The position numbers were made by a program, and so were the translations under genes. The notes under the pieces were generated by a model. It searched no databases and was not told the origin of the DNA. It saw only the letters and a program-made list of their open reading frames with translations. Positions 46,600 to 63,201 of a stretch of 64,000 nt of DNA are shown piece after piece; positions within the stretch are counted from its first letter, which is position 1, and each line of letters opens with the position of its first letter. Location of the stretch: the NCBI GenBank assembly GCA_963760615.1, contig CAVXDX010000003.1:104718-168717 (forward strand), given 5' to 3'. The stretch is from an uncultured Candidatus Micrarchaeota archaeon. Lineage in GTDB: Archaea > Micrarchaeota > Micrarchaeia > Burarchaeales > Fermentimicrarchaeaceae.

Positions 46600-47775
46600 T
46601 TACTTCTTGATGAACTTCTTGAAGAAACTCTCACAGGCTGAGGCGACCCTCTTCCTATACTCTCTGGGGCAAGCAACTATGGCTTTTCTCCTCATCTCCT
46701 CAGTCCTCTTTATAGCCCCTACGATGTCGGAAAGGCTCTCGAGCGGGCGCTCGACCGAATCCTTCACTATGGTGACGCGGCTCTCGCCGAATCTCTCGTC
46801 ATATGCTTGCCTGCACTCCAGAATAACATCCTCCACCCCGCTCTTCTTTTCGATGTCTTCCTCAGCCTCCCTCACTTCCCGGTAGTTCTTAAAGAGCTCT
46901 TTCCCCCTCTCATTAAGCCTATAAAACTCAAGCTCGTATGCCCTCTTGTAAAGCTCCCTATTCCTAATCCTCCTCATAAGCTCCCCGCTTCTCTCACCTC
47001 TCTCAAGGGCAGCCCCTAGCTCAGCATCATTGCAGCTGAGCAGCTCACTCATGGAAATTGTTTCATCCTCAAGAGCAGACTCAACAGCCCTGCATAGCAT
47101 TGCGCTGGCAATTCTGACTGCATGATGGTAGTAGACTGATGAGAACATGAGAAACCTAGCTATAAGGAGCGATTCCGCAGCCTCAATCCCGCCCCACTCT
47201 ACGACCGCCCTTCCCCCCTTAAGCCTTATGGTGTGAGCCAATCTTCCGCAGTCTATCACTCCGTATGCAACACCGGTGTAGTGTGAATCCCTCAACAGGT
47301 AATCCATCCTGTCAGAGCCAAGTGCGAAATTTATTATTCCGCCGCTTCCCTTCCCAGCCATAATCGAGCAGATCTCTTTCACATCATAACCATTCTCCTC
47401 AAGCACCTCACCGCTCCTCCCGTGCATGACTCTCTCAACTCCTCTCTTTTCATGGCCGCCCTTCTTTTTCCTTATTAAAATTTCCTCGCTGTCATGGGAG
47501 AAGGCAGTATGCCCCACGTCATGAAGCAGCGCAGCTGCCCTCATTGCTCCCTTCTCCTCTTCCGGGAGTGAGAGGTTCTCGCATATCTGCCCGGTTATAT
47601 GCATCGTGCCAAGGGAGTGCTCAAACCTTGTGTGGTTCGCACCTGGATAAACAAGATAGGCAACCGCCATCTGCCTTATCTCCCTCAGCTTCTGCATCTC
47701 GGGAGTGTCAATGAGCTTCAGCTCAGCATCGCTGACCGATACATCTCCGTGAACGGCATCCTTTATCACGTGCAT
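46600..47775 (-). CDS. HD-domain phosphohydrolase (dGTPase-like)
   Basis: HTRFEHSLGT ... LLHDVGHTAFSH motifs. Confidence 0.75.
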   Translation of the reverse strand: MHVIKDAVHGDVSVSDAELKLIDTPEMQKLREIRQMAVAYLVYPGANHTRFEHSLGTMHITGQICENLSLPEEEKGAMRAAALLHDVGHTAFSHDSEEILIRKKKGGHEKRGVERVMHGRSGEVLEENGYDVKEICSIMAGKGSGGIINFALGSDRMDYLLRDSHYTGVAYGVIDCGRLAHTIRLKGGRAVVEWGGIEAAESLLIARFLMFSSVYYHHAVRIASAMLCRAVESALEDETISMSELLSCNDAELGAALERGERSGELMRRIRNRELYKRAYELEFYRLNERGKELFKNYREVREAEEDIEKKSGVEDVILECRQAYDERFGESRVTIVKDSVERPLESLSDIVGAIKRTEEMRRKAIVACPREYRKRVASACESFFKKFIKK

Positions 47776-48617
47776 TATACCAACCCGTAGCAGCCTCTCC
47801 TCTTCTCTATGGCATCTCCCCGGTCCTTCATTATCTCAAGAACAACTGCGCAGGCTGGCTCGCCTGTCTTCAGCTCCCTGCTTATGTCGGCAAGGTTGTT
47901 TGCGCCCTTCTTCATACTCTGCCTGACCTTCTCAATCATGCCGGAAAACCAGCTCCTCTTCGCGACATAGAACCTCTTGTCAAAACCCCTCGTGCCTATT
48001 ATATTTCCGCTCCTTATCTCCTTCTCAAACTTATTGCAAAGCGCCTCTGCATCCCTTGCATCCTCTACAATCGCATAGCCGTTCTTCTCAAGCTGCTCCT
48101 CGGGAGTGCCTTCACCTGCTTCTGACTTTTGGCTCTTGAGGAGAGCATAAACATTATTTGAGATTTCGTATACCCCAGTCTTTGAGTACTTGCCTCCCTT
48201 GTAGAGCATCACGGCACCTTTGCCAATGAGCTTTGAAAGAACCTCCTTCTCCCTCTCACTGAGCTTCTTGTTGACATTGTAGGGTATCCTCTCTGAGAAT
48301 TTTATGCCGTTGAGCTTCCTGAGCAGCTCCATCTCCTCCATTCCCAGCCCTTTCTGCTCATAGGGGAGTGCGACCTCACCAATTTCATCCTTCAGCATTC
48401 TCTCCACTGTCTCCTTTTTCACAAGCGTGAACACACCTGGCTTTATCTCGTAGAAATCGACTTCCTCCCCTCCCTGGAGCTTAAGCTTCTCAACCATTCC
48501 CTTTGGGAGTATGCACGCCAGGTTATCCGCAACTCTATAAACTCGAACTATTAAATCACCCATTATAATAGCTTCCACACATAATTTAAAGTTTATCACA
48601 CTTTGTGAACCGACCAT
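47775..48617 (-). CDS. hypothetical protein
   Basis: 280-aa ORF, 1-nt overlap with the HD gene suggesting co-transcription. Confidence 0.4.
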   Translation of the reverse strand: MVGSQSVINFKLCVEAIIMGDLIVRVYRVADNLACILPKGMVEKLKLQGGEEVDFYEIKPGVFTLVKKETVERMLKDEIGEVALPYEQKGLGMEEMELLRKLNGIKFSERIPYNVNKKLSEREKEVLSKLIGKGAVMLYKGGKYSKTGVYEISNNVYALLKSQKSEAGEGTPEEQLEKNGYAIVEDARDAEALCNKFEKEIRSGNIIGTRGFDKRFYVAKRSWFSGMIEKVRQSMKKGANNLADISRELKTGEPACAVVLEIMKDRGDAIEKRRGCYGLV

Positions 48618-48747
48618 TTCTCTGAAAGCAGTAAAATGCAGCTCATTCTAATATCACTGGCGGCAAACCCTGCTTTTCACCAGAAAGCTCCACCAAAAGA
48701 TAGATATATATCCAAAGGCAGCTATAAACAACTCAACCCAGGGTGGT

Positions 48748-51700
48748 ATGATGAAAAAATTGGTTTTTTTAACGGTCTTCCTACTTCTCATGACTCCTTC
48801 ATCTTATGCTTCTTTAACCTACCCAACCTCACCAAAAGGCACACCAAGAATTTCAAAGCAGTATATGATGCCTGCCCCAACAATCTACACGGTAAATGGC
48901 CTTTACCAAATAAACATGACAGGCCTGAGCGACTTTGACCGTCCCGGTAAACCCATTCTTCCTTTTAAGACCGTCAGCCTGCTTCTGCCTCTTGACCAAT
49001 CATTTAACAGCGTCGAGGTGATTCCTAGCCAAAGAACAGAGATAGGAAACTATAAAATCAACTATGGCAGAGTAGAACTGCCTTTGAACTGGGGTTCCGA
49101 TGCTTATGTAACGAAAAAATTCTCGAATGTAACAACAGTAATAAATCAAACTGTCTATTCTCAAAACAGTGAGTATCCCGGAGTGCTTTACTCTGTAGGA
49201 TCAATCTCAATCTTCAGAGGCTATAAGATAATTATTGTAAATCTTTATCCTGTTCAGTATATACCCAGCACAGGAGAAGTCTACTATTTCAAATCAATTA
49301 CTGTCAATGTTTATACAGATAATGTTACGTCAATCCCATCTACCTTCAGAGGCCTTGACACAGACAAGGCAGATGTTTCATCTATGGTAAGTAATCCTGA
49401 GGATATTGTTACATACAATTCTTCATATAAGTATGTTCCATCTAAAAACGAGTTTGGAACCGCCTCTCTAACTCCGGCCCAATGGGACTACGTTATCATA
49501 ACCTCAAGCAGTCTTGCAAGTGCTTTCCAACCACTACTTGATTACAAGAACTCTCAGGGTATCAAGACAACCATAGAGACTGTTGAAAACATTTACTCCA
49601 AATATTCTGGCAAGGATCAGCAAGAGCAGATTAGGAATTTCATCAAGGATGCTTACACAAACTGGGGCATCAAGTATGTTCTTTTAGGCGGTGACGGTTC
49701 TGGAGTAAATGTCGGAGGAGAGAGCGGGGTCAACATAATTCCAACAAGATATTTGTATCCTAGATTTAGTCAGGCAGACGATGCAATCCCATCTGACATT
49801 TACTATAGCGATCTAGAAGGCTCATTCGATAGCAATGGCAACGGCTATTACGGCGAGCCAGGAGATGGATGCGATATCAATCCATCCACTTGCGAGGTTG
49901 ATTTGTATGCTGACGTCTATGTCGGCAGAGCAACAGTTGCTAATGTTCAGGATGTTAATAATTTTGTTTCAAAGACTATTGCTTATGATTCTGAAAGCAT
50001 AAGCGACCCTCACAAGGGCGAGGCATTGATGGTTGGTGAGTATCTTGGCTTTGGAGGCGTTGCAAACTATGCAACTAATAGCAAGGAAGAGGTGAGGCTA
50101 GGCTCGAACCAGAACGGCTATACAACAGCAGGTTTCTATCCGGGCTACTCTGTAGATCTGATGTATGACTCCCCTGCTCACACCTGGTCAAAGGATGACT
50201 TGATTTCAAAGATCAATAACAATTCCGCCAACATCATCAATCATCTCGGTCATGGCAGCACTTTATGGGTTATGAAGCTCTGCAACGCTCCTTACTCACA
50301 ATCAGGTCCTTACTGCGGAGACAGCGGTGTCACGGATCTCAGCAGTCTTAGCAACACGAAATATTTCTTTGCCTACAGCCAAGCATGCTATTCAGGAGCA
50401 TTTGACAACTGGAATTATCAAGGTATGTACACAATGTCCGATTCAATAGCAGAGCATCTTGTCAAGGATGCTCACGGCGCTTTCGCTGTGGTAATGAATA
50501 GCAGATATGGGTGGGGTCAATTATTTTCTACTGACGGTGCGTCAGAGAGATATGACAGGCAGTTCTTCGATGCAATCTTTGGGCAGAACATCACAGAGTT
50601 GGGTAAGGCAAATACATACTCGAAGGAAAAGAACATCGGCTATCTATCTTCATCCGATCCAGCTGAAGCAGGCGTGATGAGATACGTCTACTACGAGACA
50701 AACCTTTTAGGAGATCCGACTACCCAGCTGCAGACAGACTATACAAAGCCTCAAGCTCTTATCACATCTCCGCAAATGGATGACATTTCTTACGGCTCAA
50801 TAAATGTCAGTGGGTATGCAAAAGCGGGTAAAGCAGCAGGTTCGACATTTAGGAACTATAAAATCTTTTACGGCACTGGAATGTTTCCTACTGTTTGGAA
50901 TTCTACTGGCGTGACTTTGGTTAACTATGGGTTGAGACCTGTGGACAATAATAGTCTGGGAACGATTGATACAACTCTTTTTTATGATGCGGACACTGAT
51001 TTTACAGGATGGGATTATTACGCCTATTATTGGGGAAGTGGTGCCGGTGCTTATTCAATCAAGCTGGTAGTTTACGATAACCTCGGAGCATCAACTGAAA
51101 GTATAACTCGTGGTGTTGGAGTTCATAATATAGTGCTGAACCAGCCAATGCCAAGAGATGTCTTAGGACCGATAACTGAAATAAAAGGGACTGTTTCAAG
51201 CGGGTATGCCAATCCTCTTACATCTTATAGTATTGTATATCAGCCACAAAATACTACGGGATGGTCTGCGAGTGGAATAACACTAACTAACAGTGGAACA
51301 CAGCCTGTTTATAACGGTGTCTTGGGAGTTTTGAACGCCGGTGGATTAAATACTGGATGGTATACCTTTAGATTAATAGCTGTTTATACGTATAATACTA
51401 AAATGCAGACCATAGAAAATGTTTATATTGATACAACCTTAAGACCTGGTTGGCCGCAAAGAGTTTATTTTCAAGGTATAGATAATCCTTACTTTTGGAC
51501 TTCCCATATTGTTTCAAGTGGAATTAATATCAGCAATCTTAAAAACTTGAGTATTAATTTAAGCTCATATGGTAAAATTGCCCCAGGAGGTAATATAGTA
51601 AGTAGTGTAAATTACCCTCTTTATAATATATCTAGTTTATCATCTGGATTTGTCAGTCCTTATCAGCCAGGAAACTTTGAGCCAGTTGTTAGCGATATCA

Positions 51701-54270
51701 ACGGTGACGGCAAGGATGAAATAATAGTTTTTCAACCAGGAGAGAATACTGCTAGTTTTGGACAAGAAGTCCCAGGAATAATATCTGTTTTCAGTCAAGA
51801 TGGAACACTTTTATATAATTGGTCTATACCAAGTCCTACTATTCCGCCTGGTGGTCTTGGTACCCCTTTAGGTGGAATGGGTTCAGTGTGGCTTCCACCA
51901 TTTGCAGTTGCGCCTCCTTCTGTTGCAAATATAGACGGTGATAATGATGAAGAAATTGTAATCCCAGTTGCTCCTGCCCCTACAGAAGTTGCTACTTTAA
52001 ATGTTTATGAATATAACGGCACATTATTAAAAACTCTAGATTCTTCAAGAGATAATTATGATTTTAGGAATGAGCCTCTAATAGCAAATTTGTTCAATAA
52101 TGGAACTATGTATGTTGTAAAAAAAGTTGATTATTGCGAAATAGAGCAGCCTCAACCGAACGTACATGAATGGGATGCTTGCTTGAAAGTTTATGACCCT
52201 CAAGGGAATATGCTAAACGGTTGGCCTGTTTCAACCAAGCCTTCCGCCGGAGCGCTAATAATGTTTGGAAAAGTTAATCCAAATCAAGTTGTTGGTCATT
52301 TTGAAAACAATAAGAACTCGGACATTGTCGACTTTTCTACTGTTCATTGGAATCCTCGGGGTAATCGTGATGGCCTTAAACTCACTGTTTATACGCCAAA
52401 CGGAACCATTCTCCCAGGATTTCCTGTTGTATGGGATGACGGTCTTATCCACACAGCCTCAGACCCTGTTGTAGGAGACATTAACAGGGATGGAAAAGAT
52501 GAAATAATTTTTGTTCATAATGGCGGTACTCTAACTGCCGTAGATAGTAATGGCAATACACTGTGGACTCAGAATTTTCAAGTGCAAGGAGCAGGAGGTA
52601 ATACTTATCAGTATTCAAAATCTCCTGCTTTGATTGATATTAATCATGACGGTTATCTAGAGATTGTATTAGTAACAGGTAGTCACGAATACATCGTAGA
52701 TCATACAGGAAATATTATTAAAGATTTTATAATAGCATATGGTGTTAGTAATATGGCAACTGCCCAATTTGATGATAATGCTGCTCCTATAACCGAAAAG
52801 TCACCTGTAGTCGTTGATTTGAATAATGATGGCGTTTCTGACATTTTGACAACATCACAGAATTGGGAAGCTTATAATGGTGGAGACTTTGTCGGATTTG
52901 ACGACATTCAAGAGATTCATGCCTTCAATCCTTTGGACATTAATAACAGCTCATGTTTTGACAGTAATAATGTATACCTGTGCGAAAAGAAATACTTTCC
53001 AGGTTTTCCAAAAATTATGGAATCTTCAATTTTCTTTTATGCATCTCCAGTGATTATTAATAAGGATGGAAAGGTTGAAATAGTAGCAACTTCAAGTATG
53101 GATGACCTTTTTAAAGGAAGAGCAAGCATCTATGTTTGGGATACTAACATAACTTATGGACCAGAAGCAGCATCGTGGCCTATGTTCCAGCACGATGAGA
53201 TGCATACTGGCAGGTTTGTATTCCCACTAACTCTAGTCCAATCCGTCAATCCCGCATCCGGAACTGCAGTTGCACCGGTCACACCAACATTCATCTGCGG
53301 TTATTATGACACAAATAATGCTCCAATACTTGGAGCCAGTGTTAATGTCACCATTGACTCAAATATTCACACTGCAACCTACAACTCAACTACTGGTGAT
53401 TACCGCTATTCAGGCCTGACGCTCACTACGGCAACCCATAAATGGTACTGCAGTGCGTCAGCATCAGGATACAACACCAAGATAGGTGCTAACCAGACGT
53501 ATCTTTTTGTAACCCCCATGCCGGTAGCAGCCCTCAAAGGAGGCCCAAACGGACAGCTATATGTCCCCAACATAACAGGCATCAATTACCTGAAAGTGGA
53601 TTTGTGGTGCAACATGAGCAACACAGACTGCCAGTTTATTGGCGGCAGGCAATACTGCGGTTGCACACGCATGCAGTGCGACCAGACAGGAGCCACTGCG
53701 GCAAACCGACCATACCCAACAATAACAAACTGGCCGGACGGCAGGATTAACCTGCAGGACACAATGTTTGAGAACCTCAATTTCGGTCAGAACGAAGGCA
53801 TGCCTGCCTGGAACTACACGGCAGACTGTATTCCAGACAGGAGGACTAACCTGCAGGATACTGCTGGTGCAAGCTACAGATTTGGAGCAATAGGCGGAAC
53901 CTATTCCAACAACACTGCAAATATAAAAGTCCTTTTCAACAATGACCCAAGCTTCAAGATGCCCGATGTATACGGATACATACAGATTCCTTCAGGTGCT
54001 GTGAACTTCACTGTATATAACGGAACAAAGCCAGTGATGGCGCTGGTGACATTCTACAACAGCTCAATCTTATACCAACTCGCACCTGCAACCAAACCAA
54101 GCACTCAAGTCCAGACAACAGCTCTTATGGCACCAACCGTTGAGATGCCGGTAGGAAACACATGGACGATGGCAGTGGTTCTCATAGCAATAATAGGCTT
54201 GGTGATTGGCTACTTCATCCTAAAGGAAATTCTGTACATAAGCGTCCCAAGAAAAAAGAAGAGAAAGTAG
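48748..54270 (+). CDS. giant secreted surface protein: peptidase C25 (gingipain-like) domain + FG-GAP/beta-propeller-like repeats + C-terminal TM anchor
   Basis: Signal peptide MMKKLVFLTVFLLLMTPSSYA; C25-like segments YVIITSSSLASAFQPLLDYKNSQGIKTT, YVLLGGDGS, INHLGHGS (His) and YSQACYSGAF (Cys); repeated DINGDGKDEII/DINRDGKDEII/DLNNDGVSDI; C-terminal TM + KKKRK. Confidence 0.7.
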   Translation: MMKKLVFLTVFLLLMTPSSYASLTYPTSPKGTPRISKQYMMPAPTIYTVNGLYQINMTGLSDFDRPGKPILPFKTVSLLLPLDQSFNSVEVIPSQRTEIGNYKINYGRVELPLNWGSDAYVTKKFSNVTTVINQTVYSQNSEYPGVLYSVGSISIFRGYKIIIVNLYPVQYIPSTGEVYYFKSITVNVYTDNVTSIPSTFRGLDTDKADVSSMVSNPEDIVTYNSSYKYVPSKNEFGTASLTPAQWDYVIITSSSLASAFQPLLDYKNSQGIKTTIETVENIYSKYSGKDQQEQIRNFIKDAYTNWGIKYVLLGGDGSGVNVGGESGVNIIPTRYLYPRFSQADDAIPSDIYYSDLEGSFDSNGNGYYGEPGDGCDINPSTCEVDLYADVYVGRATVANVQDVNNFVSKTIAYDSESISDPHKGEALMVGEYLGFGGVANYATNSKEEVRLGSNQNGYTTAGFYPGYSVDLMYDSPAHTWSKDDLISKINNNSANIINHLGHGSTLWVMKLCNAPYSQSGPYCGDSGVTDLSSLSNTKYFFAYSQACYSGAFDNWNYQGMYTMSDSIAEHLVKDAHGAFAVVMNSRYGWGQLFSTDGASERYDRQFFDAIFGQNITELGKANTYSKEKNIGYLSSSDPAEAGVMRYVYYETNLLGDPTTQLQTDYTKPQALITSPQMDDISYGSINVSGYAKAGKAAGSTFRNYKIFYGTGMFPTVWNSTGVTLVNYGLRPVDNNSLGTIDTTLFYDADTDFTGWDYYAYYWGSGAGAYSIKLVVYDNLGASTESITRGVGVHNIVLNQPMPRDVLGPITEIKGTVSSGYANPLTSYSIVYQPQNTTGWSASGITLTNSGTQPVYNGVLGVLNAGGLNTGWYTFRLIAVYTYNTKMQTIENVYIDTTLRPGWPQRVYFQGIDNPYFWTSHIVSSGINISNLKNLSINLSSYGKIAPGGNIVSSVNYPLYNISSLSSGFVSPYQPGNFEPVVSDINGDGKDEIIVFQPGENTASFGQEVPGIISVFSQDGTLLYNWSIPSPTIPPGGLGTPLGGMGSVWLPPFAVAPPSVANIDGDNDEEIVIPVAPAPTEVATLNVYEYNGTLLKTLDSSRDNYDFRNEPLIANLFNNGTMYVVKKVDYCEIEQPQPNVHEWDACLKVYDPQGNMLNGWPVSTKPSAGALIMFGKVNPNQVVGHFENNKNSDIVDFSTVHWNPRGNRDGLKLTVYTPNGTILPGFPVVWDDGLIHTASDPVVGDINRDGKDEIIFVHNGGTLTAVDSNGNTLWTQNFQVQGAGGNTYQYSKSPALIDINHDGYLEIVLVTGSHEYIVDHTGNIIKDFIIAYGVSNMATAQFDDNAAPITEKSPVVVDLNNDGVSDILTTSQNWEAYNGGDFVGFDDIQEIHAFNPLDINNSSCFDSNNVYLCEKKYFPGFPKIMESSIFFYASPVIINKDGKVEIVATSSMDDLFKGRASIYVWDTNITYGPEAASWPMFQHDEMHTGRFVFPLTLVQSVNPASGTAVAPVTPTFICGYYDTNNAPILGASVNVTIDSNIHTATYNSTTGDYRYSGLTLTTATHKWYCSASASGYNTKIGANQTYLFVTPMPVAALKGGPNGQLYVPNITGINYLKVDLWCNMSNTDCQFIGGRQYCGCTRMQCDQTGATAANRPYPTITNWPDGRINLQDTMFENLNFGQNEGMPAWNYTADCIPDRRTNLQDTAGASYRFGAIGGTYSNNTANIKVLFNNDPSFKMPDVYGYIQIPSGAVNFTVYNGTKPVMALVTFYNSSILYQLAPATKPSTQVQTTALMAPTVEMPVGNTWTMAVVLIAIIGLVIGYFILKEILYISVPRKKKRK

Positions 54271-54891: not shown

Positions 54892-55977
54892 ATGCATGTT
54901 GAGAGGAAACTGCCGGAAAGAACGCACTTCGGAGATAAACCCGTATCCTGCACTCAGTATCTCACGAAAGACAAGCAGATTACAACGTTCTGGGAGTACG
55001 CTGATCGACTCGGAGTTAAGAGCACTATCCTTATCCATCTTGTAATTACTCCCAACAAGGAACTAATAGAAGCAAGAATAACCGACAGAACATTGGGCTT
55101 TACTAATAACACTATCATATACGACAAATCGGCTGAACCAGTACAACGTTCTTATCCTCCTGGGCGTCAGAGAATAGCAGAAGATTACCAGGCAAAGTTA
55201 AAACTTTTCCTCGAGAGCGTGGATATAACTATCACACCCGCGCTTCCCTCTGCTGAAAAAACCTTCAAAAATCTTGCAGCAAGTGGAGAAGGGGTAGCCG
55301 CTAAGAAGGAGCCAGAATTTTCAAAGGTTATGAAAATTCAAAGAAGAGGTAGTGCGATGCATGTAGTCATCCCGACTGAAATAGTAAGACAATGGGGACT
55401 GCAGGATGGTCAAATAGCATACTGGAAGATTCTAGGTGACCGTTTCACCCTAAAAACAGTAAAAGGTGTGCACGAGAATGTCGTACAAGTGTATGGACCG
55501 GGGTACGGGAGATTAGGTCTCAGCATCCCAAGAAAAATTCAAAAGGATTCTGGTTTCGAGGCAGACATGACTTTCAAGCTGGAAGAGGTCTCAATTGGAG
55601 ATGACAAATTCATCAAGCTGATACCAACGAAGGGAGAGTGGGATGCTAGAATTTACGGTAAGCCAGGAGACTTAAGGATGGGGTTCTCCAAATCAGTTTC
55701 GGGGACTCTTATACAACCGTATATGCTGCTCGATTGGAAGATTAAAGAAAAGGAGAGCTTTCTGGAAATACTTGGCACCCATCCCTATAATATAACCATC
55801 TGGGAGGTGGAGAAAGAAGGTTCTCTGTGTGCAGCTATCCCAAAGAGACTGATAAAAGATATGGAACGCATGAAGCGCATGAACTTTGAGAACTGCGAGA
55901 ATGTAGTGTGGACGATGGAGGAAGGCGAAGCATTTCTAAGACCCATCTTGCCAGAGGACATAACTCGTAAAAGTTAA
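54892..55977 (+). CDS. protein with three tandem AbrB/MazE/SpoVT-like swapped-hairpin domains
   Basis: Repeats VMKIQRRGSAMHVVIPTEIVRQWGLQDGQIAYWKI, GRLGLSIPRKIQKDSGFEADMTFKLEEV, SLCAAIPKRLIKDMERMKRMNFENCENVVW. Confidence 0.5.
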   Translation: MHVERKLPERTHFGDKPVSCTQYLTKDKQITTFWEYADRLGVKSTILIHLVITPNKELIEARITDRTLGFTNNTIIYDKSAEPVQRSYPPGRQRIAEDYQAKLKLFLESVDITITPALPSAEKTFKNLAASGEGVAAKKEPEFSKVMKIQRRGSAMHVVIPTEIVRQWGLQDGQIAYWKILGDRFTLKTVKGVHENVVQVYGPGYGRLGLSIPRKIQKDSGFEADMTFKLEEVSIGDDKFIKLIPTKGEWDARIYGKPGDLRMGFSKSVSGTLIQPYMLLDWKIKEKESFLEILGTHPYNITIWEVEKEGSLCAAIPKRLIKDMERMKRMNFENCENVVWTMEEGEAFLRPILPEDITRKS

Positions 55978-56439: not shown

Positions 56440-56822
56440 AGAAGCCTCTTCTCACCAGTTATTTTCTGTATATCTGTGATATCCTGAGTGACCTCTATGC
56501 ACCCCTTATACTCCCCTTTTCTGCTCCTCACTGCGAAATATCTTATGTAGATTTTCTTGCCGTTCAAATCAATCCAGAACTCTGCAGAATCCCTCTTCCC
56601 ACTCCTGAATTCAAAGAGTATTCTGTTCACTGCAGCCAAGCTTTTTTCTGGGTGGCACTTCTGCACGCTCCTCCCTATAACCGAAGCAGGCCTCTGGAAA
56701 ATCTCCCTGCGGCCTTCCTTGTTGAAATACCTTACGGTTTCATCTGCATCTATAAAAGAGAATTCAAAAGGCAGCGCATCCAGTATGTCATCCAGATACT
56801 CCTTCGGCACGTCCTCAATCAT
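56436..56822 (-). CDS. PAS-domain protein
   Basis: 128 aa, PAS-like fold (LDALPFEFSFIDADETVRYFN...). Confidence 0.5.
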   Translation of the reverse strand: MIEDVPKEYLDDILDALPFEFSFIDADETVRYFNKEGRREIFQRPASVIGRSVQKCHPEKSLAAVNRILFEFRSGKRDSAEFWIDLNGKKIYIRYFAVRSRKGEYKGCIEVTQDITDIQKITGEKRLL

Positions 56823-57430
56823 TTTTCCACCTCAAGCTCAACTTCAACAACTTTGCCAGCGGGCTTCTCCTCCTTAAAAACCTGGCTCTGGAACTTGTAG
56901 ATTTTAACCTTGGGGCTCAGCCACACGTCAACGGGCACGCCAGCCTTGTAGCATGTCTGCGAGAGAAACTCCTCTTCATCCCATCCCTGCTCAACAGGCA
57001 CTATGGGGAGAAGCAGCCCAGAGTAATACCCATACTCCACAATCAACCCGTCCTTCCCCACCCTTACCCTCTTGGGGTATTCTTTCGGGTCACTGACTTT
57101 TATAACTTCTGGAACCGTAAGCACACTTATCTCAATGGTGCATTTGTCCAGCTCTCTTCTGCTCATCTCCGGAAACCTGGGGTCACATGTTGCAGAGCTT
57201 ATCGCGCAGTCCACAACAGACTGTGCAAGCTCCTTGACTGGATAGGGATACCCTATGCAGCCCCTCAGCCCCTTCTCTGGGCATGTCTCAATGGTTACGA
57301 AAACTCCCCTCTTTTCAAGAAGCGATGCAGGAGGGTTGTCAGGTTCTATGGTAATTCTTTTTTCTAGGTATACCTCAATGGCCTTCCTAGCAAGCCTTAT
57401 CAGATATTCTCCCTCATCCAAAGAGAGCAT
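56819..57430 (-). CDS. AMMECR1-domain protein
   Basis: GLRGCIGYPYP and CDPRFP motifs of AMMECR1. Confidence 0.8.
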   Translation of the reverse strand: MLSLDEGEYLIRLARKAIEVYLEKRITIEPDNPPASLLEKRGVFVTIETCPEKGLRGCIGYPYPVKELAQSVVDCAISSATCDPRFPEMSRRELDKCTIEISVLTVPEVIKVSDPKEYPKRVRVGKDGLIVEYGYYSGLLLPIVPVEQGWDEEEFLSQTCYKAGVPVDVWLSPKVKIYKFQSQVFKEEKPAGKVVEVELEVEK

Positions 57431-57438
57431 ACAATCAC

Positions 57439-58302
57439 CTAACCCCAGGGGGATATACCCACCAGCCTCATCATTATCAGGTATTTCACAAGCGGGAAGA
57501 GCAGAAGGTAAAATGGGGCCACCAGGGGTATTGCTATTCTGAAGCCGGCGAGTATGGAGCCCTGCGAGAGCAGCAGGACCAACAAGCCTGGCACTATGCC
57601 AGTGAGGAATATGAGAAATATGGAATATTTCACTGATTCATTCGTGTATACTGATATGGAGCTCCTTCTTGAAGTCTCAATTTCTCTTATGAAGCTCTCA
57701 AGGACATTCACTATGTTGACACCACTCCCCATCGCATAGCTCAGTGTTGCGACAAACCTCTGGAAAGTAACCGAGGGGGTCCTCATGGAAATCTCCACGA
57801 ATGCATCGCTTATTTCCTCCCCTTCCTTGATTCTCACCAGGCTCTGCCTGAACAGCTCGGAGACGACACCATAATTCTCTCTTGCGATGGACTCTATTGC
57901 ATCATGCAGCGGTATGCCCGAACGCAGTTCTGAAAGCAGATGTCTCAGCGAGTCAAGCAGGTTCAGGTCGACATCCCTCTTCCTGCTGTTCACTATGAAA
58001 TCAAAATAGCTGACTGCCATAAATGTTGAAACAAAAAGCATTATAAGAGAGAGAAAGAGAGCGAGGTAAATGGTGAATTGAAAGTAGGCTGCGATAAAAG
58101 AAAAATAAATCGCTGAGAGCACGAATGAAGTTACTCCCACACCAACTACAAATGAGGAATAACCCCCGGGCGTTATATCTATGCCAGACTGCAGTATCCT
58201 TAGCTTGGTTGCCCTTGAAGTGGGTATCACCCTCTGCGGGTTTATACCGAGTTTTGAGAAAATCTTTGACCAGAACGCTGAGAAATCCACTACAAAATCC
58301 AT
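57439..58302 (-). CDS. TadC/FlaJ-like (T2SS F-domain) membrane platform protein
   Basis: 287 aa, T2SSF-like cytoplasmic domain (LRHLLSELRSGIPLHDAIESIA) flanked by TM helices. Confidence 0.65.
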   Translation of the reverse strand: MDFVVDFSAFWSKIFSKLGINPQRVIPTSRATKLRILQSGIDITPGGYSSFVVGVGVTSFVLSAIYFSFIAAYFQFTIYLALFLSLIMLFVSTFMAVSYFDFIVNSRKRDVDLNLLDSLRHLLSELRSGIPLHDAIESIARENYGVVSELFRQSLVRIKEGEEISDAFVEISMRTPSVTFQRFVATLSYAMGSGVNIVNVLESFIREIETSRRSSISVYTNESVKYSIFLIFLTGIVPGLLVLLLSQGSILAGFRIAIPLVAPFYLLLFPLVKYLIMMRLVGISPWG

Positions 58303-58306
58303 AGGC

Positions 58307-58543
58307 TCACTTCAGGATACTCTTTATCCTTGGCATGAATTCCTCCCTCTTGTTCCTTGGGGTGTTGTAGTATGCGTGAATCACCTTTCCGACATCAAAG
58401 AAATTCGTTATGCCGTTATTCGCAAGGTAGTTCAACACCTGCGCCCTCCTTTTGAATTCATCGCGGAGTTCCCCCTCTGTAAGATTGAAGCTCTGGGCGT
58501 ACTTATTCAGCGTTTTTGAGGGGTATCGGCCGAACACTCTCAA
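58307..58543 (-). CDS. small hypothetical protein in the secretion-ATPase operon
   Basis: 78-aa ORF filling the 200-nt gap between the ATPase and tadC; overlaps the ATPase 3' end by 41 nt. Confidence 0.3.
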   Translation of the reverse strand: MRVFGRYPSKTLNKYAQSFNLTEGELRDEFKRRAQVLNYLANNGITNFFDVGKVIHAYYNTPRNKREEFMPRIKSILK

Positions 58544-60527
58544 GCTCGCTCTTCTTCTCGTTGAACTCGTAAAGCTTGTTGAGGAAGCCCACTTCCTCCC
58601 CCTCCCTCCAAACCTGATCCCTCATTTTTGTCGGAATGGTGTCCTTTCCAAGCATGCCTTCAATCTCATCTGGAATTTCACCTCTGGAGCGCCAGTTCAC
58701 CTCTGAGCACTGTATCACCCTTCTTTTCTTCTCGACATCTGTTGAGAGTGTTATTATTATGTCAAGCATCGATAGCATGTCGCTTGGAACCTTCATTGGC
58801 GGTCCGTGTATCCTTTTCACAACTGCAGTTCCAACCTCCTTTGAATGCAGTGTAGTCATGAAGGATATGCCCCAGTTGGCTCCTGAGAACAGCTCTCTGG
58901 CTTCACTCCCCCGGAGCTCCCCCAGCACAATTCTGTCCGGCCTCATCCTCAGGGAATTGGTTATCTGGTCCATGGAAGTTCTGAGCCTTGCAACCTCCTC
59001 GCCCTTCCTCATTGCCTCATCCTTCCTCTCCTGGTAAACCCCGATAAGCGGAATCCAGTTTATGAACTTATCATAGAATCTGAGCTCGTTTATCTCCTCC
59101 TCAACCGATATGACCCTCTCGCCTGCAGGGATGAAGACAAGCAGAGAGGAAAGAAGGGACGTCTTTCCTGTTGCAGGTGCGCCCGTGATTATCATCTGGG
59201 ATTTCTTGAGCTCTATGGCCATCCAGAGGAACGCGCCAAGCTCCGCATCAACGGTTCCGGCATTCATTATCTTCGTATACGTCCAGGGGTCGCTCCCGAA
59301 GAGCCTTATGCTGGCGGTTGCGCCTGTGAGGGAAGCTGGAGCAATCTGGGCATGAAGCCTTGAACCGTCAGGAAGCTGGGCATCAACCACAGGGTGTATC
59401 ATGTCAAGCGATTTGCCAAGAGGCCTCAGAATTGCATTCATAACTTTCTTGAATGACCTGTCGCTCGTGAACCTCAGATTTGTTATGCACCTTCCATGCT
59501 TCCTGTGGTAGACAAGAATTTCCCTCAGCGGGTGGTCAATTTCTATCTCCTCAAGATTTTCCCTGTCCCTCATCCAGAAGTACTCTATGGCGCCAAAGCC
59601 TATAGTGTCAATTGCCACTATCTCCGCTATGGACTCCTTCTTCTCCGGGTCCAGGGTCGGCTCAAGCCTGTTTAGTATATCCCTTGCTATGAGCTTGACC
59701 TTGTTGATAGCCTTAGACCTCATCTCCAGATTGAAATACTCCGGAGGGGTGAGGAACGCCGACAGGTATTCATCGGCAACTTTCATTATTGTGAAATGCT
59801 TCACATACTCAGCAAGCTTCCAGTCATCTGAGAACAGCTTTGGGAAGCTTATGCAGTACGTCCTCCCCAAATCCTCCACATCGAATATCTTAACCCTCCC
59901 ATACTCGTCAACCAGTCTAGCATCCTTGCCCGGCGGCGGGAACTCAAGAACACCAAACGAGAAAGGAGCGGAGAACCTTTTATCTATGCTCTCCGGTGAA
60001 AGTGGCTCCCTGTATCTGATGGTGGGTATGTCCTTGCCCTCTCCTATGAAATGCGGCTCAAATCCTTTCTCATAGAACTCCTCAGATTCATGTTCTTTCT
60101 TGGCTTCTGAGATATCCTCCTCAACTTCATAGACTTCAAGAGCGCCGTGGGGGCAGAATGTAACACATATTGGGTTTGACAGCTTTAGAGAGGAGCATAG
60201 GTCGCATTTGACGGATACCTTCATGCCCTTCTTATTCTTCTTCAGCTTTATCCCGCTGGTCTTGCATTCCGAAACGCATGCGCCGCAGCCGTCGCATTTC
60301 TCAGGGATTACCTGTATTATGCCATTCTTGTCTATCCTGAGAGCGTTGTTCATGCACGCCTTGACGCAGACCGCATACTTCGGGTTGCATTGCGTGCAAT
60401 ACTGCAACTCCCCTCCCGCTATGGACAGGACTCCTTTTGGGCATACCCTTGTGCAGTAGTTGCATTGCGGTGCCTTGCACTTCTCCTCAATCCACCTAAG
60501 CTTCTTCATAAAACGACCGGGAAACAC
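58503..60527 (-). CDS. FlaI/VirB11/TadA-family secretion ATPase with N-terminal tandem 4Fe-4S ferredoxin-like domains
   Basis: Four Cys clusters (CKAPQCNYCTRVCP, CTQCNPKYAVCVKAC, CDGCGACVSEC, CDLCSS...CVTFCP); Walker A GAPATGKTS, Asp box DRIVLGELRGSEA, His box TLHS. Confidence 0.75.
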   Translation of the reverse strand: MFPGRFMKKLRWIEEKCKAPQCNYCTRVCPKGVLSIAGGELQYCTQCNPKYAVCVKACMNNALRIDKNGIIQVIPEKCDGCGACVSECKTSGIKLKKNKKGMKVSVKCDLCSSLKLSNPICVTFCPHGALEVYEVEEDISEAKKEHESEEFYEKGFEPHFIGEGKDIPTIRYREPLSPESIDKRFSAPFSFGVLEFPPPGKDARLVDEYGRVKIFDVEDLGRTYCISFPKLFSDDWKLAEYVKHFTIMKVADEYLSAFLTPPEYFNLEMRSKAINKVKLIARDILNRLEPTLDPEKKESIAEIVAIDTIGFGAIEYFWMRDRENLEEIEIDHPLREILVYHRKHGRCITNLRFTSDRSFKKVMNAILRPLGKSLDMIHPVVDAQLPDGSRLHAQIAPASLTGATASIRLFGSDPWTYTKIMNAGTVDAELGAFLWMAIELKKSQMIITGAPATGKTSLLSSLLVFIPAGERVISVEEEINELRFYDKFINWIPLIGVYQERKDEAMRKGEEVARLRTSMDQITNSLRMRPDRIVLGELRGSEARELFSGANWGISFMTTLHSKEVGTAVVKRIHGPPMKVPSDMLSMLDIIITLSTDVEKKRRVIQCSEVNWRSRGEIPDEIEGMLGKDTIPTKMRDQVWREGEEVGFLNKLYEFNEKKSELESVRPIPLKNAE

Positions 60528-60719
60528 TCCTCGATATACTTTAGCTGTATAGATTTAAAATGTTGCAGGTTTAACTCAGGAAAGCTTAATATATCTCAGC
60601 GCATCAATACGCACAGGTGATTTTTGTGGAGGAACACCCTGAATGCGAATCTTGCCCTTTCTGCTGCTACGAGAGACCAGAGAAAGAGGAGAAGAAGCCA
60701 AAAAAGAAGAAGGCGGCTC

Positions 60720-61193
60720 CTAAACGACGCTGAGCTGAACTGTCTTATTTATATCAAGAGAGATGGGCAGGTTGAGTGTTGCACTTACATACCACCTCAC
60801 CTGAGAGGGCGCAGCCCCTAAGCCCTCCGCTATTCCAACTATGTCTGCTGCCAGTCCTTCCAGCTTTGGTGGCTCTGGCATTTTAGGCACTGTTATCTCA
60901 AACTGGTACTCCCCACTGGTATACTCCTTCTCCCCTCCGAGAGTAAGCTTGAACTCATAAACTATGTCTTTACGACTCGTTGGTCTTTCCACAGATTTAT
61001 GGCTTGCAGAATCAAATGTTTGACTTTTCGTTCTCACACTCCTCTCGCCCCAAAACCTCACCCCGAGTTCCCTGGCCTTCTTGGGAGAATTAAGCTGAAG
61101 TTTTACAGTCCCCTTTATTTTGTCACCTGGCGAGTAGTTTACCTTATCCAGGGTTACATCCATTCTGCCCTCACCAATACCAAAAACCACCAA
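60720..61193 (-). CDS. Spo0M/arrestin-N-like protein
   Basis: VTLDKVNYSPGDKIKGTVKLQL arrestin-like N-terminal strand pattern. Confidence 0.4.
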   Translation of the reverse strand: MVVFGIGEGRMDVTLDKVNYSPGDKIKGTVKLQLNSPKKARELGVRFWGERSVRTKSQTFDSASHKSVERPTSRKDIVYEFKLTLGGEKEYTSGEYQFEITVPKMPEPPKLEGLAADIVGIAEGLGAAPSQVRWYVSATLNLPISLDINKTVQLSVV

Positions 61194-61260
61194 ATCACCA
61201 AATAGAATTTAACGTATTATTTTTAAATATAACGCTTCAAATGATAATGGGGGTGGAATT

Positions 61261-61581
61261 ATGAAAGCGAAGGTACTTCTGCTGTTGTTAGTGCTAGGCA
61301 TTGTCTCAGCACAGGTGGCTAGCACAGATGTTAGAACCACGCTATGTCCTCTTGTAACGCTCGTGAGGCAGATTGGGGTTTTCATTGCCATAGTGATGCT
61401 CTCCTATGCCGGCATAAGCTTCATGACATCCGGCAGCGATCCAATGAGGCACAAGGAAGCAGAGAAGAGGCTCGAATATGTCATAATAGGCATATTGATT
61501 CTCATAATGGCTTTCTACATAGTTGCAAGAATGTTCGCCGGGGTGAATGTGCTCAGCGGCGGGGACTGCCCTTGGGTCTAG
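61261..61581 (+). CDS. small signal-peptide + two-TM membrane protein, VirB2/TrbC-pilin-like topology
   Basis: Signal peptide MKAKVLLLLLVLGIVSAQVA, two TM helices separated by a charged loop (TSGSDPMRHKEAEKRLEY). Confidence 0.35.
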   Translation: MKAKVLLLLLVLGIVSAQVASTDVRTTLCPLVTLVRQIGVFIAIVMLSYAGISFMTSGSDPMRHKEAEKRLEYVIIGILILIMAFYIVARMFAGVNVLSGGDCPWV

Positions 61582-61592
61582 ATTTACACGAG

Positions 61593-62075
61593 TCAGTCTA
61601 GCCGTTTTCCCATAGGTGCTTCCGCGAACTTATCCCCTATTTTCTCCTTTTCTTCGTATTCATACCCACCATGCTTTTTCAAAAAATCCTTGGACTCGCG
61701 TGTTAGAGGACTTGTAGTCATATACGTCACTCCCAGCGCCTTCAGCGTAGCCTCAGAATGTTTAAGCAGAAGCATTCCAATCCCCTCTCCCTGCCTATGA
61801 GTTGCAACGGCGAGCTTAAGCCCATCGGCAGTTTTGGATTCCATATCTACAAAGCATTCCCTTGCGCCAACCACTTCCTTGCTTTCCCTATCAACAGCAA
61901 CAAAAACTATATTCCCTTTTTTCTTTCCATAGAGCTCAAACAGGCTCCCTCCCCTAACGCCATCTTTGAAGCCGTTTTCTCTCAGTATTCTGTCTACGTT
62001 CACTCTATCCTCTTCATGAAACTCCCTTATCTCAACATAGGCGCTAGCACCCTCTATCTTCCTGGTAGCTTCCAT
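61593..62075 (-). CDS. GNAT-family N-acetyltransferase
   Basis: QGEGIGMLLL acetyl-CoA-binding motif. Confidence 0.7.
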   Translation of the reverse strand: MEATRKIEGASAYVEIREFHEEDRVNVDRILRENGFKDGVRGGSLFELYGKKKGNIVFVAVDRESKEVVGARECFVDMESKTADGLKLAVATHRQGEGIGMLLLKHSEATLKALGVTYMTTSPLTRESKDFLKKHGGYEYEEKEKIGDKFAEAPMGKRLD

Positions 62076-62122
62076 GCATTAAATTGTGTCTTCTGGACTA
62101 TTTAACATTTGCGAGCAGGAAA

Positions 62123-62154
62123 CCCCACGCTCTTCAGAGGTGGGAGCATGTCAC
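62123..62154 (+). mobile_element. miniature IS200/IS605-derived element or solo end (left-end-type hairpin fused to right-end terminus)
   Basis: CCCCACGCTCTTCAGAGGTGGGAGCATGTCAC: hairpin of the 30149 type directly joined to the AGCATGTCAC terminus; lies between the GNAT gene and the purM stop. Confidence 0.45.
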
Positions 62155-62155
62155 A

Positions 62156-63172: not shown

Positions 63173-63201
63173 ACAAACACCTGAAATAACCTCGACGCTG
63201 T

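Follow-up and report, generated by a model that had tools for sequence, protein, structure and literature searches.

A single open reading frame (ORF) in the 64,000-nucleotide stretch of DNA analyzed here (the window) encodes a predicted protein of 1840 amino acids, and it raises the question of whether so long a sequence is one gene and what kind of protein it specifies. The runner-up ORF has 674 amino acids; thus, an earlier description made from the letters alone, termed here the sequence-only reading, was right to call the longer one the largest gene in the window. Immediately 5' of its ATG is the Shine-Dalgarno-like sequence GGGTGG (48741-48746), and two TATA-like A/T-rich boxes farther upstream, ATAGATATATAT at 48700-48711 and TATAAA at 48723-48728, may be part of its expression signals (Table 1).

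Archaeal markers in the window include Cdc6/Orc1, Nre and ThiN. The PurH protein encoded there is 87% identical to PurH of a Micrarchaeota metagenome-assembled genome (MAG), and 3.4 kb are collinear with the same MAG at 76.6% nucleotide identity. The genome is therefore archaeal, and this one marker gene, coupled with nucleotide collinearity with one labeled MAG, suggests that it is Micrarchaeota-like (DPANN). No viral contigs were matched, and a provirus-borne gene was considered and rejected.

Table 1. Predicted features of the 1840-amino-acid (aa) ORF and its upstream region, in coordinates of the window
Feature	Position in window	Strand	Basis
Putative expression signals: TATA-like A/T-rich boxes and SD-like GGGTGG	48700..48747	+	Read from sequence
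ORF, 1840 aa	48748..54270	+	ATG start, no in-frame start further upstream
Sec-type signal peptide, aa 1-22, MMKKLVFLTVFLLLMTPSSYA then S	48748..48813	+	Hydrophobicity heuristic; low pLDDT at 1-27
Gingipain-type N-terminal prodomain, aa ~28-200	48829..49347	+	Pfam, profile search, Foldseek, pLDDT >90
C25 (clan CD) cysteine peptidase catalytic domain, aa 248-661	49489..50730	+	Pfam PF01364, homologue alignment, Foldseek
Candidate third catalytic residue Glu431	50038-50040	+	>=90% conserved, n=52 homologues
Candidate catalytic His502, in INHLGHGS	codon 50251-50253	+	Invariant, n=52 homologues
Candidate catalytic Cys547, in YSQACYSGAF	codon 50386-50388	+	Invariant, n=52 homologues
Middle region, aa 667-960, probably beta-rich spacer domains	50746..51627	+	pLDDT about 30 in both models
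FG-GAP repeat region, aa ~961-1490, presumed integrin-alpha-like beta-propeller	51628..53217	+	Pfam, repeat HMM
Domain A, Ig-like/CarboxypepD_reg-like beta-sandwich, aa 1491-1589	53218..53514	+	All-beta model, pLDDT 80-95
Domain X, X-dockerin-like, aa 1590-1776	53515..54075	+	Profile match, pLDDT 85-97
Linker aa 1777-1795 and conserved 45-aa tail aa 1796-1840	54076..54267	+	Tail HMM, TM helix modeled
Transmembrane (TM) helix, aa ~1806-1826, with GLxIGYFILKE	54163-54225	+	Hydrophobicity, model

The protein begins with a hydrophobic stretch within MMKKLVFLTVFLLLMTPSSYA that reaches a KD value of 1.78 across residues 5-23. By this heuristic, the N-terminal signal peptide claimed in the sequence-only reading is a reasonable prediction. 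That reading also noted numerous N-glycosylation sequons. There are 32 N-x-S/T sites, compared with 22.4 +/- 4.2 in composition-preserving shuffles, an enrichment that is modest (z about 2.3).

A gingipain-like C25 peptidase domain had likewise been proposed, and both Pfam and structure prediction bear this out. The Peptidase_C25 model matches over its complete length (profile positions 1-374 of 374; E=4.9e-63, 214 bits against a cutoff of 23), and Propeptide_C25 (PF08126) matches residues 54-195 (E=3.4e-15, 56 bits against a cutoff of 22). A profile of the family finds the Kgp prodomain 5mun (E=7.4e-10) as well as the RgpB prodomain. Residues 28-666 of the AlphaFold2 (AF2) model have a pLDDT of about 90, whereas residues 1-27 are low. 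Searched with Foldseek, this modeled head matches RgpB 1cvr (E=1.3e-14, TM score on the target 0.61), Kgp 4rbm and 6i9a (E~1e-12) and the RgpB and Kgp prodomains, the prodomain itself aligning to 4ief_A/C with a TM score of 0.64. The model thus has the caspase-like alpha/beta fold of gingipain catalytic domains. The module spanning residues ~50-665 has homologues among 668 of 8000 scored candidates, which are annotated as "C25 family cysteine peptidase" in Asgard archaea, Methanothrix, Altiarchaeales and some bacteria.

The His and Cys residues that had been singled out as catalytic candidates align with those of gingipain. In a profile-to-RgpB sequence alignment, NHLGH pairs through its GH with H211 and QACY through its Cys with C244, which places H502 and C547 at the positions of the RgpB dyad. 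As to an S1 pocket specific for Arg or Lys, RgpB Asp163 pairs with a Gly in the family profile, and the nearly invariant acidic residues E431 and E448 are nearby. Because the His502/Cys547 dyad is invariant, we rejected the reading of this protein as an inactive pseudo-protease. The C25 domain is otherwise ordinary and adds nothing new to knowledge of C25 enzymes.

Gingipains RgpB and Kgp of Porphyromonas gingivalis (MEROPS C25; 1cvr, 4ief, 4rbm, 5mun) share with the head a prodomain of inhibitory type ahead of the clan-CD catalytic domain, the same order of His and then Cys, and the fold; they are also secreted and surface-retained, as is predicted here. However, identity to the solved structures is only 14-18%, and the organism here is an archaeon lacking an outer membrane. 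The archaeal protein lacks the haemagglutinin/adhesin domains and the type IX secretion C-terminal domain of gingipains: no model of the latter matches the C-terminus, which is a TM tail. Gingipains are anchored through A-LPS rather than through such a tail, and here the catalytic domain precedes about 1100 residues of unrelated domains that would form a stalk.

Closer relatives of the head are the C25 family proteins of uncultured archaea (Promethearchaeota/Asgard, Methanothrix, Altiarchaeales and Thermoprofundales), whose propeptide and C25 module is 38-47% identical and which have been described from genomes as extracellular peptidases (PMC6461988, PMC6752024). They too are large, multidomain and secreted, and a C-terminal TM signal is present in many of them. 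The accessory domains that they carry are CARDB, PKD, NosD and dockerin, and several have a curated Loki-CTERM domain. None, however, combines the middle region, propeller, X-dockerin-like domain and tail of the 1840-aa protein, which is a new architecture within a known protease family.

The long segment between head and tail is built of several modules. The middle region matches no Pfam or NCBIfam model and has distant similarity only to S8-peptidase/FG-GAP proteins (P0123-P0125). It is followed by repeats that Pfam assigns to FG-GAP (69.3 bits, cutoff 22.1, E=2.2e-19) and FG-GAP_3 (56.7 bits, cutoff 26.9, E=3.6e-15), each in four stretches; VCBS, also looked for, has no match in the protein. 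The sequence-only reading had described many DxNxDGxDE repeats. FG-GAP-type repeats are indeed present, but "many" overstates them: four strict motifs occur, at 983, 1244, 1297 and 1357, and a repeat HMM adds two weaker repeats at 1057 and 1433, which gives six that start near residues 975, 1057, 1236, 1289, 1349 and 1433, compared with the seven blades of an integrin-alpha-type propeller. The AF2 model of this region, made from a shallow alignment, has a pLDDT of ~30; a closed Ca-binding beta-propeller is presumed from the repeats.

Domains A and X and the TM helix are modeled with confidence by AF2. Domain A gives a weak Pfam match to CarboxypepD_reg and Foldseek matches to BIg and Ig domains, and it recurs, often in tandem, among proteins that bear the same tail. 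Domain X comprises an X-dockerin-like segment, which contains the loops PDGRINLQD and PDRRTNLQD, and a beta-sandwich C-terminal to it. A search with the last 360 residues found 207 proteins at E<=1e-3 among 1.84 billion representatives, and among the matches listed the aligned stretch lies mostly in domain X. Many proteins with domain X lack the tail and end at ...FW.

A profile of domain X matches type-II X-dockerin chains at E=2e-6 to 2e-5, among them 2b59_B (E=2e-6), 5g5d_B and 3kcp_A. The similarity to these X-dockerins of cellulosomal scaffoldins, which include 4u3s_B, covers about 105 positions corresponding to the end of the X-module and both dockerin repeats, and Foldseek finds such chains from domain X as well. 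X-dockerins are, like domain X, placed near the C-terminus of a surface-assembled enzyme. However, the Ca-binding loops of domain X are degenerate (PDG.[IV][DN]..D), with non-canonical residues at ligand positions 1 and 3 as read from the sequence; an extra beta-sandwich of about 55 residues follows; and the protein is itself membrane-anchored. Among 71 related proteins, Pfam detects Dockerin_1 in eight and Cohesin in two; it detects no Dockerin_1 in the 1840-aa protein, and no cohesin partner of domain X was found.

Codon composition is uneven along the ORF. The GC content at third positions (GC3) is 0.43, then 0.25, then 0.52, with shifts at about codons 740 and 1475 (log-likelihood gain 48). 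The value of 0.25 in the FG-GAP block compares with 0.50-0.63 in most Pfam-supported neighbor genes. The gene seems to have been put together from modules that differ in origin: its codon composition makes the propeller block look foreign, whereas the anchor module has a native look.

Given this mosaic composition, we retained as an alternative that the ORF is an artifact of assembly, in which three sequences from different metagenome populations were joined: a C25 gene, a propeller gene rich in AT and the 3' end of a native tail gene. The sharpness of the GC3 shifts would fit such joins, as would the finding that no other protein among 5.8 billion has the same architecture. Moreover, a 62-residue block is identical to a paralogue apparently on the same contig, which could mislead an assembler. 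However, the last 17 residues differ from that paralogue, whose ending matches its own orthologue (P0130). Two independent in-frame joins that yield an unbroken 5.5-kb ORF are improbable, and the joins lie close to domain boundaries. The middle and propeller block also occurs fused to other proteases, such as P0123, as is expected for natural domain shuffling. Ordinary archaeal genes flank the ORF on both sides, collinear with related contigs, and the window contains no Ns. We conclude that the ORF is a genuine gene and that a chimeric misassembly is very unlikely.

The C-terminus matches what had been described from the letters in that a TM helix and a KKKRK end are present, arranged as a PVGNTW motif, the helix, a spacer of 8-9 residues and then KKKRK. 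In an HMM built for this tail, the 1840-aa ORF scores 86 bits and is the sole match in the window. The tail is found on about 30 proteins with unrelated heads: C25, papain C1, subtilisin S8, alpha/beta hydrolase and NosD (beta-helix) proteins, a Cys-rich protein and an 88-aa mini-protein. The papain-like carrier P0134 appears to lie on the same contig as the 1840-aa ORF, judging from a longest contig of 173,914 bp given for both, and two carriers share one 4.8-kb contig (L081). Genes for tail proteins occur at differing positions in contigs that are 82-86% identical to the window in nucleotide sequence. A hydrophobic N-terminus is present in 19 of 31 carriers; among the rest, many begin with a residue other than Met or show other signs of truncation.

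Alignment of 30 distinct tails gives the consensus PxG[ND]TW, about 20 hydrophobic residues that include GLxIGYFI[KR]E, and a Lys/Arg cluster. Every one of the 30 lies at the protein end or <=8 residues from it. Around the invariant W (30/30), the preceding T is kept in 24, the following T in 23, the [ND] in 24 and the G in 20. The strongest invariants (G, G, Y and F) are inside the helix; W, G and Y are invariant across all 30 tails.

Curated NCBIfam models do not match the last 80 or the last 360 residues even at E<=10, and with the last 45 residues no curated CTERM model exceeds its cutoff. The sole, weak match of this segment is to NF052597 ("FILTED domain-containing surface protein"), with 12.8 bits for this tail and 15.6 for that of a relative against a cutoff of 40, limited to profile positions 75-105 of 110; a literature search for the FILTED domain returned misspellings only. 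A hand-made degenerate DNA pattern of the tail recovered five true carriers and no false ones. A search for related loci with five tails matched 218 stretches, of which tblastn confirmed none, and a tail-profile search of the 5.8-billion-protein set returned three short proteins and missed known carriers, probably because this search performed poorly with a TM-rich 50-aa profile.

The sequence-only reading likened the C-terminus to an archaeosortase/PGF-CTERM-type sorting signal without the PGF tripeptide. The comparison holds in that the tail is conserved on about 30 unrelated secreted proteins; the tripeptide is absent, and the PGF-CTERM model does not match. PGF-CTERM with ArtA, Loki-CTERM, and CGP-CTERM or MYXO-CTERM with CPBP-type myxosortases are tripartite C-terminal sorting signals (10.1101/2023.06.07.544157; PMC11980579). 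Judged by the published description of such signals (Haft, 10.1101/2023.06.07.544157, section 5), the tail appears to have most of their properties: it is at the extreme C-terminus, with a candidate motif, a TM helix and a terminal basic cluster; it occurs more than once per genome, as in the L081 pair; and its carriers, many with predicted signal peptides, are otherwise unrelated and have homologues elsewhere without the tail or with another signal. C25 homologues elsewhere have either no TM segment or, in Asgard archaea, a curated Loki-CTERM domain at the same position as the tail. Unlike the known signals, the tail has neither PGF nor an invariant Cys, its conservation peaks inside the helix, and the spacer separates that helix from a mostly Lys cluster.

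No archaeosortase was found among the polytopic ORFs of the 64-kb window, of which those examined are a CPBP protease, an M50 protease, a HELGH membrane protein and unknowns. A CPBP/Rce1-like protease is encoded between the two tail proteins of L081. We set this protease aside as the sorting enzyme, keeping it as a lead only, in view of its absence from all 12 other tail loci examined (L082-L093). The CPBP protein of the window is unrelated to it by BLASTP, and both score well below the myxosortase cutoffs. The tail is an undescribed lineage-specific anchor or sorting tail for which there is no curated model. We tentatively entertain the further possibility that it is a new sorting signal of a Micrarchaeota-like DPANN lineage, read by a dedicated membrane enzyme (with the CPBP/Rce1 type as sole lead), which together with the X-dockerin-like domain would organize C25, C1, S8 and alpha/beta hydrolases into a surface degradative assembly.

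The existence in one lineage of many proteins with a common C-terminal signal also bears on whether the C25 domain might itself act, by analogy with PorU, the C25-family sortase of bacterial type IX secretion, as a sorting transpeptidase that, instead of digesting food proteins, cleaves such signals on other surface proteins and attaches these to a surface polymer. PorU (NF033707) is the sole NCBIfam match of the protein and is among its structural matches. However, the score of 63.6-65.4 bits is far under the cutoff of 420 and reflects the generic C25 core only (profile positions 328-733 of 1095), and the structural match is weak (TM ~0.2, E~2e-6, against TM ~0.6 and E~1e-14 for RgpB/Kgp). 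In addition, an inhibitory prodomain of gingipain type is present, lineages without the tail widely possess C25 homologues, and the tail is on the protein itself. A PorU-type identity was rejected, and we regard a sorting role of the domain as extremely improbable.

These data support a gingipain-like C25 cysteine peptidase that is secreted and anchored by a C-terminal TM helix and that has FG-GAP repeats in addition to its prodomain and His/Cys dyad. The explanation that we favor, and consider probable, is that this gene of a Micrarchaeota-like DPANN archaeon specifies a cysteine endopeptidase of the gingipain family (MEROPS C25, clan CD), made as an extracellular zymogen and anchored in the membrane with type-I topology. 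The signal peptide would direct export by Sec, and the prodomain, judging from its homology to those of RgpB and Kgp, would hold the enzyme latent until its removal. His502 and Cys547, probably with help from Glu431, would then cleave peptide bonds, as dyad conservation and the RgpB alignment suggest. The domains past the catalytic domain would form a stalk that keeps the enzyme off the membrane, and their binding partners may include substrates, cohesin-type proteins or the surface of another cell; this role as stalk and adhesin is a conjecture. The tail is predicted to cross the membrane once, leaving the short Lys/Arg-rich end in the cytoplasm.

The C-terminal module is common to papain-like, subtilisin-like, alpha/beta-hydrolase and NosD proteins of related genomes. 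Therefore, the protein is one of a lineage-specific set of surface-tethered hydrolases. On ecological grounds, the most plausible use of this set is to scavenge peptides and amino acids for an archaeon with a small genome, and a host-directed role is equally compatible with the DPANN lifestyle.

A more specific form of the latter is that the protein is a weapon or adhesin that would attach to a host archaeon through its propeller and dockerin-like domains while C25 cuts the S-layer or other surface proteins of that host. This proposal overlaps with the zymogen explanation and differs only in the target. It draws on the DPANN-like genome and on analogy with the SPEARE proteins of Nanohaloarchaeota, giant DPANN surface proteins in which a protease and adhesion domains are likewise joined to a C-terminal TM anchor (PMC6642349). 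FG-GAP and dockerin-like modules belong to folds that bind proteins, genes for tail proteins vary among close relatives as interaction surfaces would, and 2.5-6 kb downstream is a gene pair for a type-IV-pilus-like ATPase and a membrane protein. However, the likeness to SPEARE proteins is analogy only, with no sequence similarity detected: the protease of these is a serine enzyme and not a cysteine enzyme, and they contain laminin-G domains as well as a large restriction-endonuclease domain in the cytoplasm, whereas the 1840-aa protein has no laminin-G domain or cytoplasmic nuclease and a cytoplasmic end of only about 14 residues. No host is known. Moreover, the same anchor occurs on generic digestive-type hydrolases (C1, S8 and alpha/beta hydrolases), and thus scavenging fits better than a host weapon, which we consider unlikely.

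DPANN archaea, with their small genomes, are thought to rely on other cells, and the way in which they acquire building blocks is poorly understood. The 1840-aa gene, together with the papain-, subtilisin- and lipase-like proteins that bear the same tail in its relatives, suggests that one such lineage displays a whole set of hydrolases on the cell surface, which could be used for digestion outside the cell or to attack the envelope of a host. The tail provides a compact signature that lacks a curated model and makes the question of a cognate sorting enzyme tractable. The mosaic codon composition points to how large surface proteins may arise from exchangeable modules. If both the sorting signal and the assembly are real, a genome-reduced archaeon would possess a digestive or host-attacking apparatus built by module shuffling.

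The gingipain-like ORF is uninterrupted over 1840 aa and begins at the first available start codon past the upstream stop. Putative TATA-like A/T-rich boxes and a Shine-Dalgarno-like GGGTGG lie upstream of its ATG. The next-largest ORF in the window encodes only 674 aa, which bears out the claim of the sequence-only reading that this is the largest gene of the window. The signal-peptide-like N-terminus, the strings INHLGHGS and YSQACYSGAF, and the C-terminal hydrophobic helix with its KKKRK end, all described in that reading, were found in the ORF, and these elements of topology are established. The N-glycosylation sequons, described as numerous, amount to 32, a modest excess over the 22.4 +/- 4.2 present in shuffles of this Asn/Ser/Thr-rich protein. 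An entry identical to it, P0001 (1839 aa), is present in a protein database, on a contig of 173,914 bp.

The Pfam Peptidase_C25 model is covered in its entirety (214 bits, E=4.9e-63) and is preceded by a match to Propeptide_C25. Hundreds of homologues with 38-47% identity, many of them named "C25 family cysteine peptidase," can be aligned over residues ~50-665 only; their sources are Altiarchaeales, Promethearchaeota, Methanothrix and some bacteria. Across 52 aligned homologues, H502 and C547 never vary, and G430 and E431 hardly do. The profile of this alignment matches gingipain R (1cvr, E=5e-11) and also the Kgp prodomain (5mun, E=7e-10), and it places the family GH and Cys on RgpB His211 and Cys244, respectively. 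Because H502 and C547 are invariant and align in this way, the His/Cys dyad, whose absence from a gingipain alignment had been named as grounds for abandoning the C25 assignment, is present, and the assignment stands. AlphaFold2 modeling of residues 1-900 gave high confidence over 28-666 (pLDDT about 90). In structural comparison, the model comes closest to RgpB (E=1.3e-14, TM 0.61), to Kgp and to the RgpB/Kgp prodomains (TM ~0.64); PorU is a far weaker match. The NCBIfam PorU model also matches the ORF (64 bits versus a cutoff of 420), a match that stems only from the common C25 core. The domains, dyad and fold of the head are established. C25 peptidases of archaea have been described from genomes before and are annotated routinely (PMC6461988, PMC6752024); as a new member of the family, the head is ordinary.

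Residues 667-960 gave neither a family match in Pfam or NCBIfam nor a confident AlphaFold2 model. The region that follows matches FG-GAP and FG-GAP_3 far above the Pfam cutoffs, with six detectable repeats. A closed seven-blade propeller is the expectation for a region of this family; the AlphaFold2 pLDDT here is about 30, and the alignment contains a handful of homologues. DxNxDGxDE repeats are indeed present, but "many" was an overstatement, as the count is four strict motifs plus two weaker repeats. The middle/FG-GAP block has only a few distant relatives, which are FG-GAP proteins; five of the seven are fused to S8 subtilisins, and one of these relatives (P0123) can be aligned over ORF residues 767-1307. 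Thus, the block acts as a cassette common to secreted proteases.

With the final 360 residues as query, an exhaustive search yielded 207 representatives at E<=1e-3, and mapping of these matches splits the C-terminal module into domain A, domain X and the tail. In many of the listed matches, domain X is the extreme C-terminus and ends "...GAMIIFW." A profile of domain X has matches among the type-II X-dockerin modules of cellulosomal scaffoldins (2b59_B, E=2e-6), and Foldseek with the confident part of a second model retrieved the same X-dockerin chains together with Ig domains. Pfam detects Dockerin_1 in 8 of 71 related proteins, and Cohesin in 2. However, positions 1 and 3 of the two loops in the ORF (PDGRINLQD and PDRRTNLQD) are without the canonical Ca ligands, and domain X is therefore termed no more than dockerin-like. 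With this proviso, the predicted folds of domains A and X are established.

After a linker comes the 45-residue tail. The 30 distinct tails gathered from protein matches and fetched loci follow the pattern EP..(Q/E)MPVG[ND]TWT.AVVLIAIIGL.IGYFIL[KR]EAL..[ST].T[RK]K[RK]K[RK]K, in which W, one G and Y occur in all 30, and a second G and F in 28. The proteins that carry it (see table) have mutually unrelated heads, and most of the complete ones have a hydrophobic N-terminus; one 4.8-kb contig (L081, Logan SRR29366204) holds two. Sharing of the C-terminal module is an established property of these proteins. Asgard C25 homologues have the curated Loki-CTERM where the ORF has its tail (24-32 bits versus a cutoff of 19.9). 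In contrast, no curated NCBIfam model matches the tail above its cutoff; the sole match is to NF052597, "FILTED domain" (12.8 bits versus 40), on which no literature was found. Ten C25 homologues (P0038, P0063, P0064, P0070, P0071, P0074, P0076, P0092, P0096 and P0118) share a C-terminal tail distinct from that of the ORF, AVAMSTVAVNTT.AEK.AIIGLLVLVSVALAVWA.RRRG.... One member scanned against NCBIfam had no curated match and merely a weak one to CoaP_CTERM; this tail may be a second uncatalogued sorting or anchor signal.

The tail shows attributes 1, 2 and 4-8 of published tripartite C-terminal sorting signals (10.1101/2023.06.07.544157, section 5), and attribute 3 is a borderline case, conservation being strongest within the helix. 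No archaeosortase was found among the polytopic ORFs scanned in the 64-kb window, which include an M50 protease and a HELGH membrane protein. Three membrane-embedded protease-like genes lie in a 16-kb part of the window (see table). The sole hint of a cognate enzyme is in L081, where the two tail proteins flank a 333-aa protein without assignment and a CPBP/Rce1-like intramembrane protease. This placement is suggestive because MYXO-CTERM and CGP-CTERM proteins are sorted by CPBP enzymes (PMC11980579). However, such a protease is absent from all 12 other tail loci that were examined (L082-L093), the CPBP protein of the window is unrelated to that of L081 by BLASTP, and both score far below the myxosortase cutoffs. 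The default reading is that the tail is a plain, unusually conserved TM anchor.

The JGI contigs L082 and L084 have 82-86% nucleotide identity to the two ends of the window, and L084 (82-84% over the end that it matches) contains a 977-aa tail-bearing gene (P0133) at a site that spans only about 25 bp in the window. Therefore, tail-protein genes are variable islands, gained and lost among close relatives. The papain-like tail carrier P0134 appears to reside on the same contig as the ORF, since the longest contig given for the two proteins has one and the same length. The two share a perfectly identical 62-residue block (KPVMALVTFYNSS...IGLVIGYF) within a region that is otherwise just about 50% identical, which suggests gene conversion between these paralogues.

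The ORF is a mosaic in composition. GC3 is 0.43 over codons 1-740, 0.25 over 740-1475 and 0.52 over 1475-1840, and a model with two breakpoints is better than one with none by 48 log-likelihood units, so that mosaicism is established. Most Pfam-supported neighbor genes have a GC3 of 0.50-0.63; against these, the anchor module has a native appearance and the propeller block a foreign one. An assembly chimera could also have made such a mosaic. However, both joins keep the reading frame, the later one (about codon 1475) lies near a domain limit, the same middle/propeller cassette is found on other proteases, and the flanks of the ORF are collinear with relatives. For these reasons, natural module shuffling is favored over chimerism.

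The window DNA is archaeal, as judged by Cdc6/Orc1, Nre and ThiN, and 3.4 kb of it is collinear with the MAG of "Candidatus Micrarchaeota archaeon Sv174" (76.6% nucleotide identity). PurH (AICARFT/IMPCHase) is 87% identical to its Sv174 counterpart and 60% to that of Iainarchaeum, and the further ~78 best matches are bacterial, mainly Nitrospirota (53-57%); purH looks like a bacterial-type gene acquired by this DPANN lineage. An 86-nt tRNA scoring 56 bits by Rfam, which ARAGORN did not report, is kept beside purH in the Sv174 MAG and may be an archaeal tRNA with an intron. The window also encodes an IS605-type TnpB (GC 41.7%), and similar genes occur in the related contigs L082, L083 and L086.

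Upstream of the ORF, on the opposite strand, are genes for an HD-domain protein, a phosphohexomutase and a GlmU-like nucleotidyltransferase; downstream are unannotated ORFs, then AMMECR1 and a type-IV-pilus-like T2SSF/T2SSE pair. None of our tests tied these flanking genes functionally to the ORF. Its immediate neighbors contain, as judged by eye, AbrB/SpoVT-like swapped-hairpin segments. The T2SSE ATPase (type II/IV secretion), whose gene adjoins those for T2SSF and AMMECR1, has N-terminal 4Fe-4S ferredoxin domains, an unusual fusion that is faintly visible in L084 as well.

Features of the ORF, the window and related loci, and proteins that carry the tail
Feature	Location or protein	Remarks
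Gingipain-like ORF	window 48748..54270 (+)	
Propeptide_C25	aa 54-195	Pfam
Peptidase_C25	aa 248-661	Pfam
FG-GAP region	aa ~961-1490	
Domain A	aa 1491-1589	Ig-like/CarboxypepD_reg-like sandwich, frequently tandem
Domain X	aa 1590-1776	X-dockerin-like
Block identical in P0134	aa ~1758-1823	window 53.9-54.2 kb
Low-GC3 segment	window 50965-53170	
7-TM protein, HELGH motif	window 4343-5188	no significant Pfam match, two weak sub-cutoff matches
M50 site-2 protease with CBS domain	window 9412-10473	
CPBP/Rce1-like protease	window 19456-20250	
86-nt tRNA	window 23196-23281	
PurH	window 26435-27988	
TnpB/Cas12f1-like_TNB gene	window 30225-31301	
Immediate neighbors of ORF	window 47775-48617 (-), 54892-55977 (+)	no Pfam match
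T2SSE ATPase	window 58503-60527	
T2SSE-ferredoxin fusion (faint)	L084 1746-3947	
Stretch matched by L084	window 56563-64000	
P0133 gene	L084 4927-7860	window counterpart 61189-61215
Locus with two tail proteins	L081 160-3683	
C1 papain-family peptidases with DUF333	P0130, P0134, P0146, carrier in L090	tail carriers
S8 subtilase with NosD repeats	P0155	tail carrier
Alpha/beta hydrolases	P0132, P0136	tail carriers
Beta-helix protein	P0137	tail carrier
Cys-rich protein, 392 aa	L081	tail carrier
88-residue protein	L081	tail carrier; consists almost wholly of signal peptide, Gly linker and tail

Beyond its head, the architecture of the ORF had no counterpart among 5.8 billion proteins. That architecture, the tail family, and the common use of the X-dockerin-like domain as a C-terminal module in archaeal hydrolases are uncatalogued. 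In the most probable reading, the product would be exported via Sec, with the prodomain holding latent what is presumably, in activity and specificity, a C25 cysteine endopeptidase. The long multidomain stalk would then keep the enzyme on the outside of the membrane, and the conserved tail, possibly processed, would tether it there. In its putative physiological role, the protease would be one member of a lineage-specific set of surface hydrolases.
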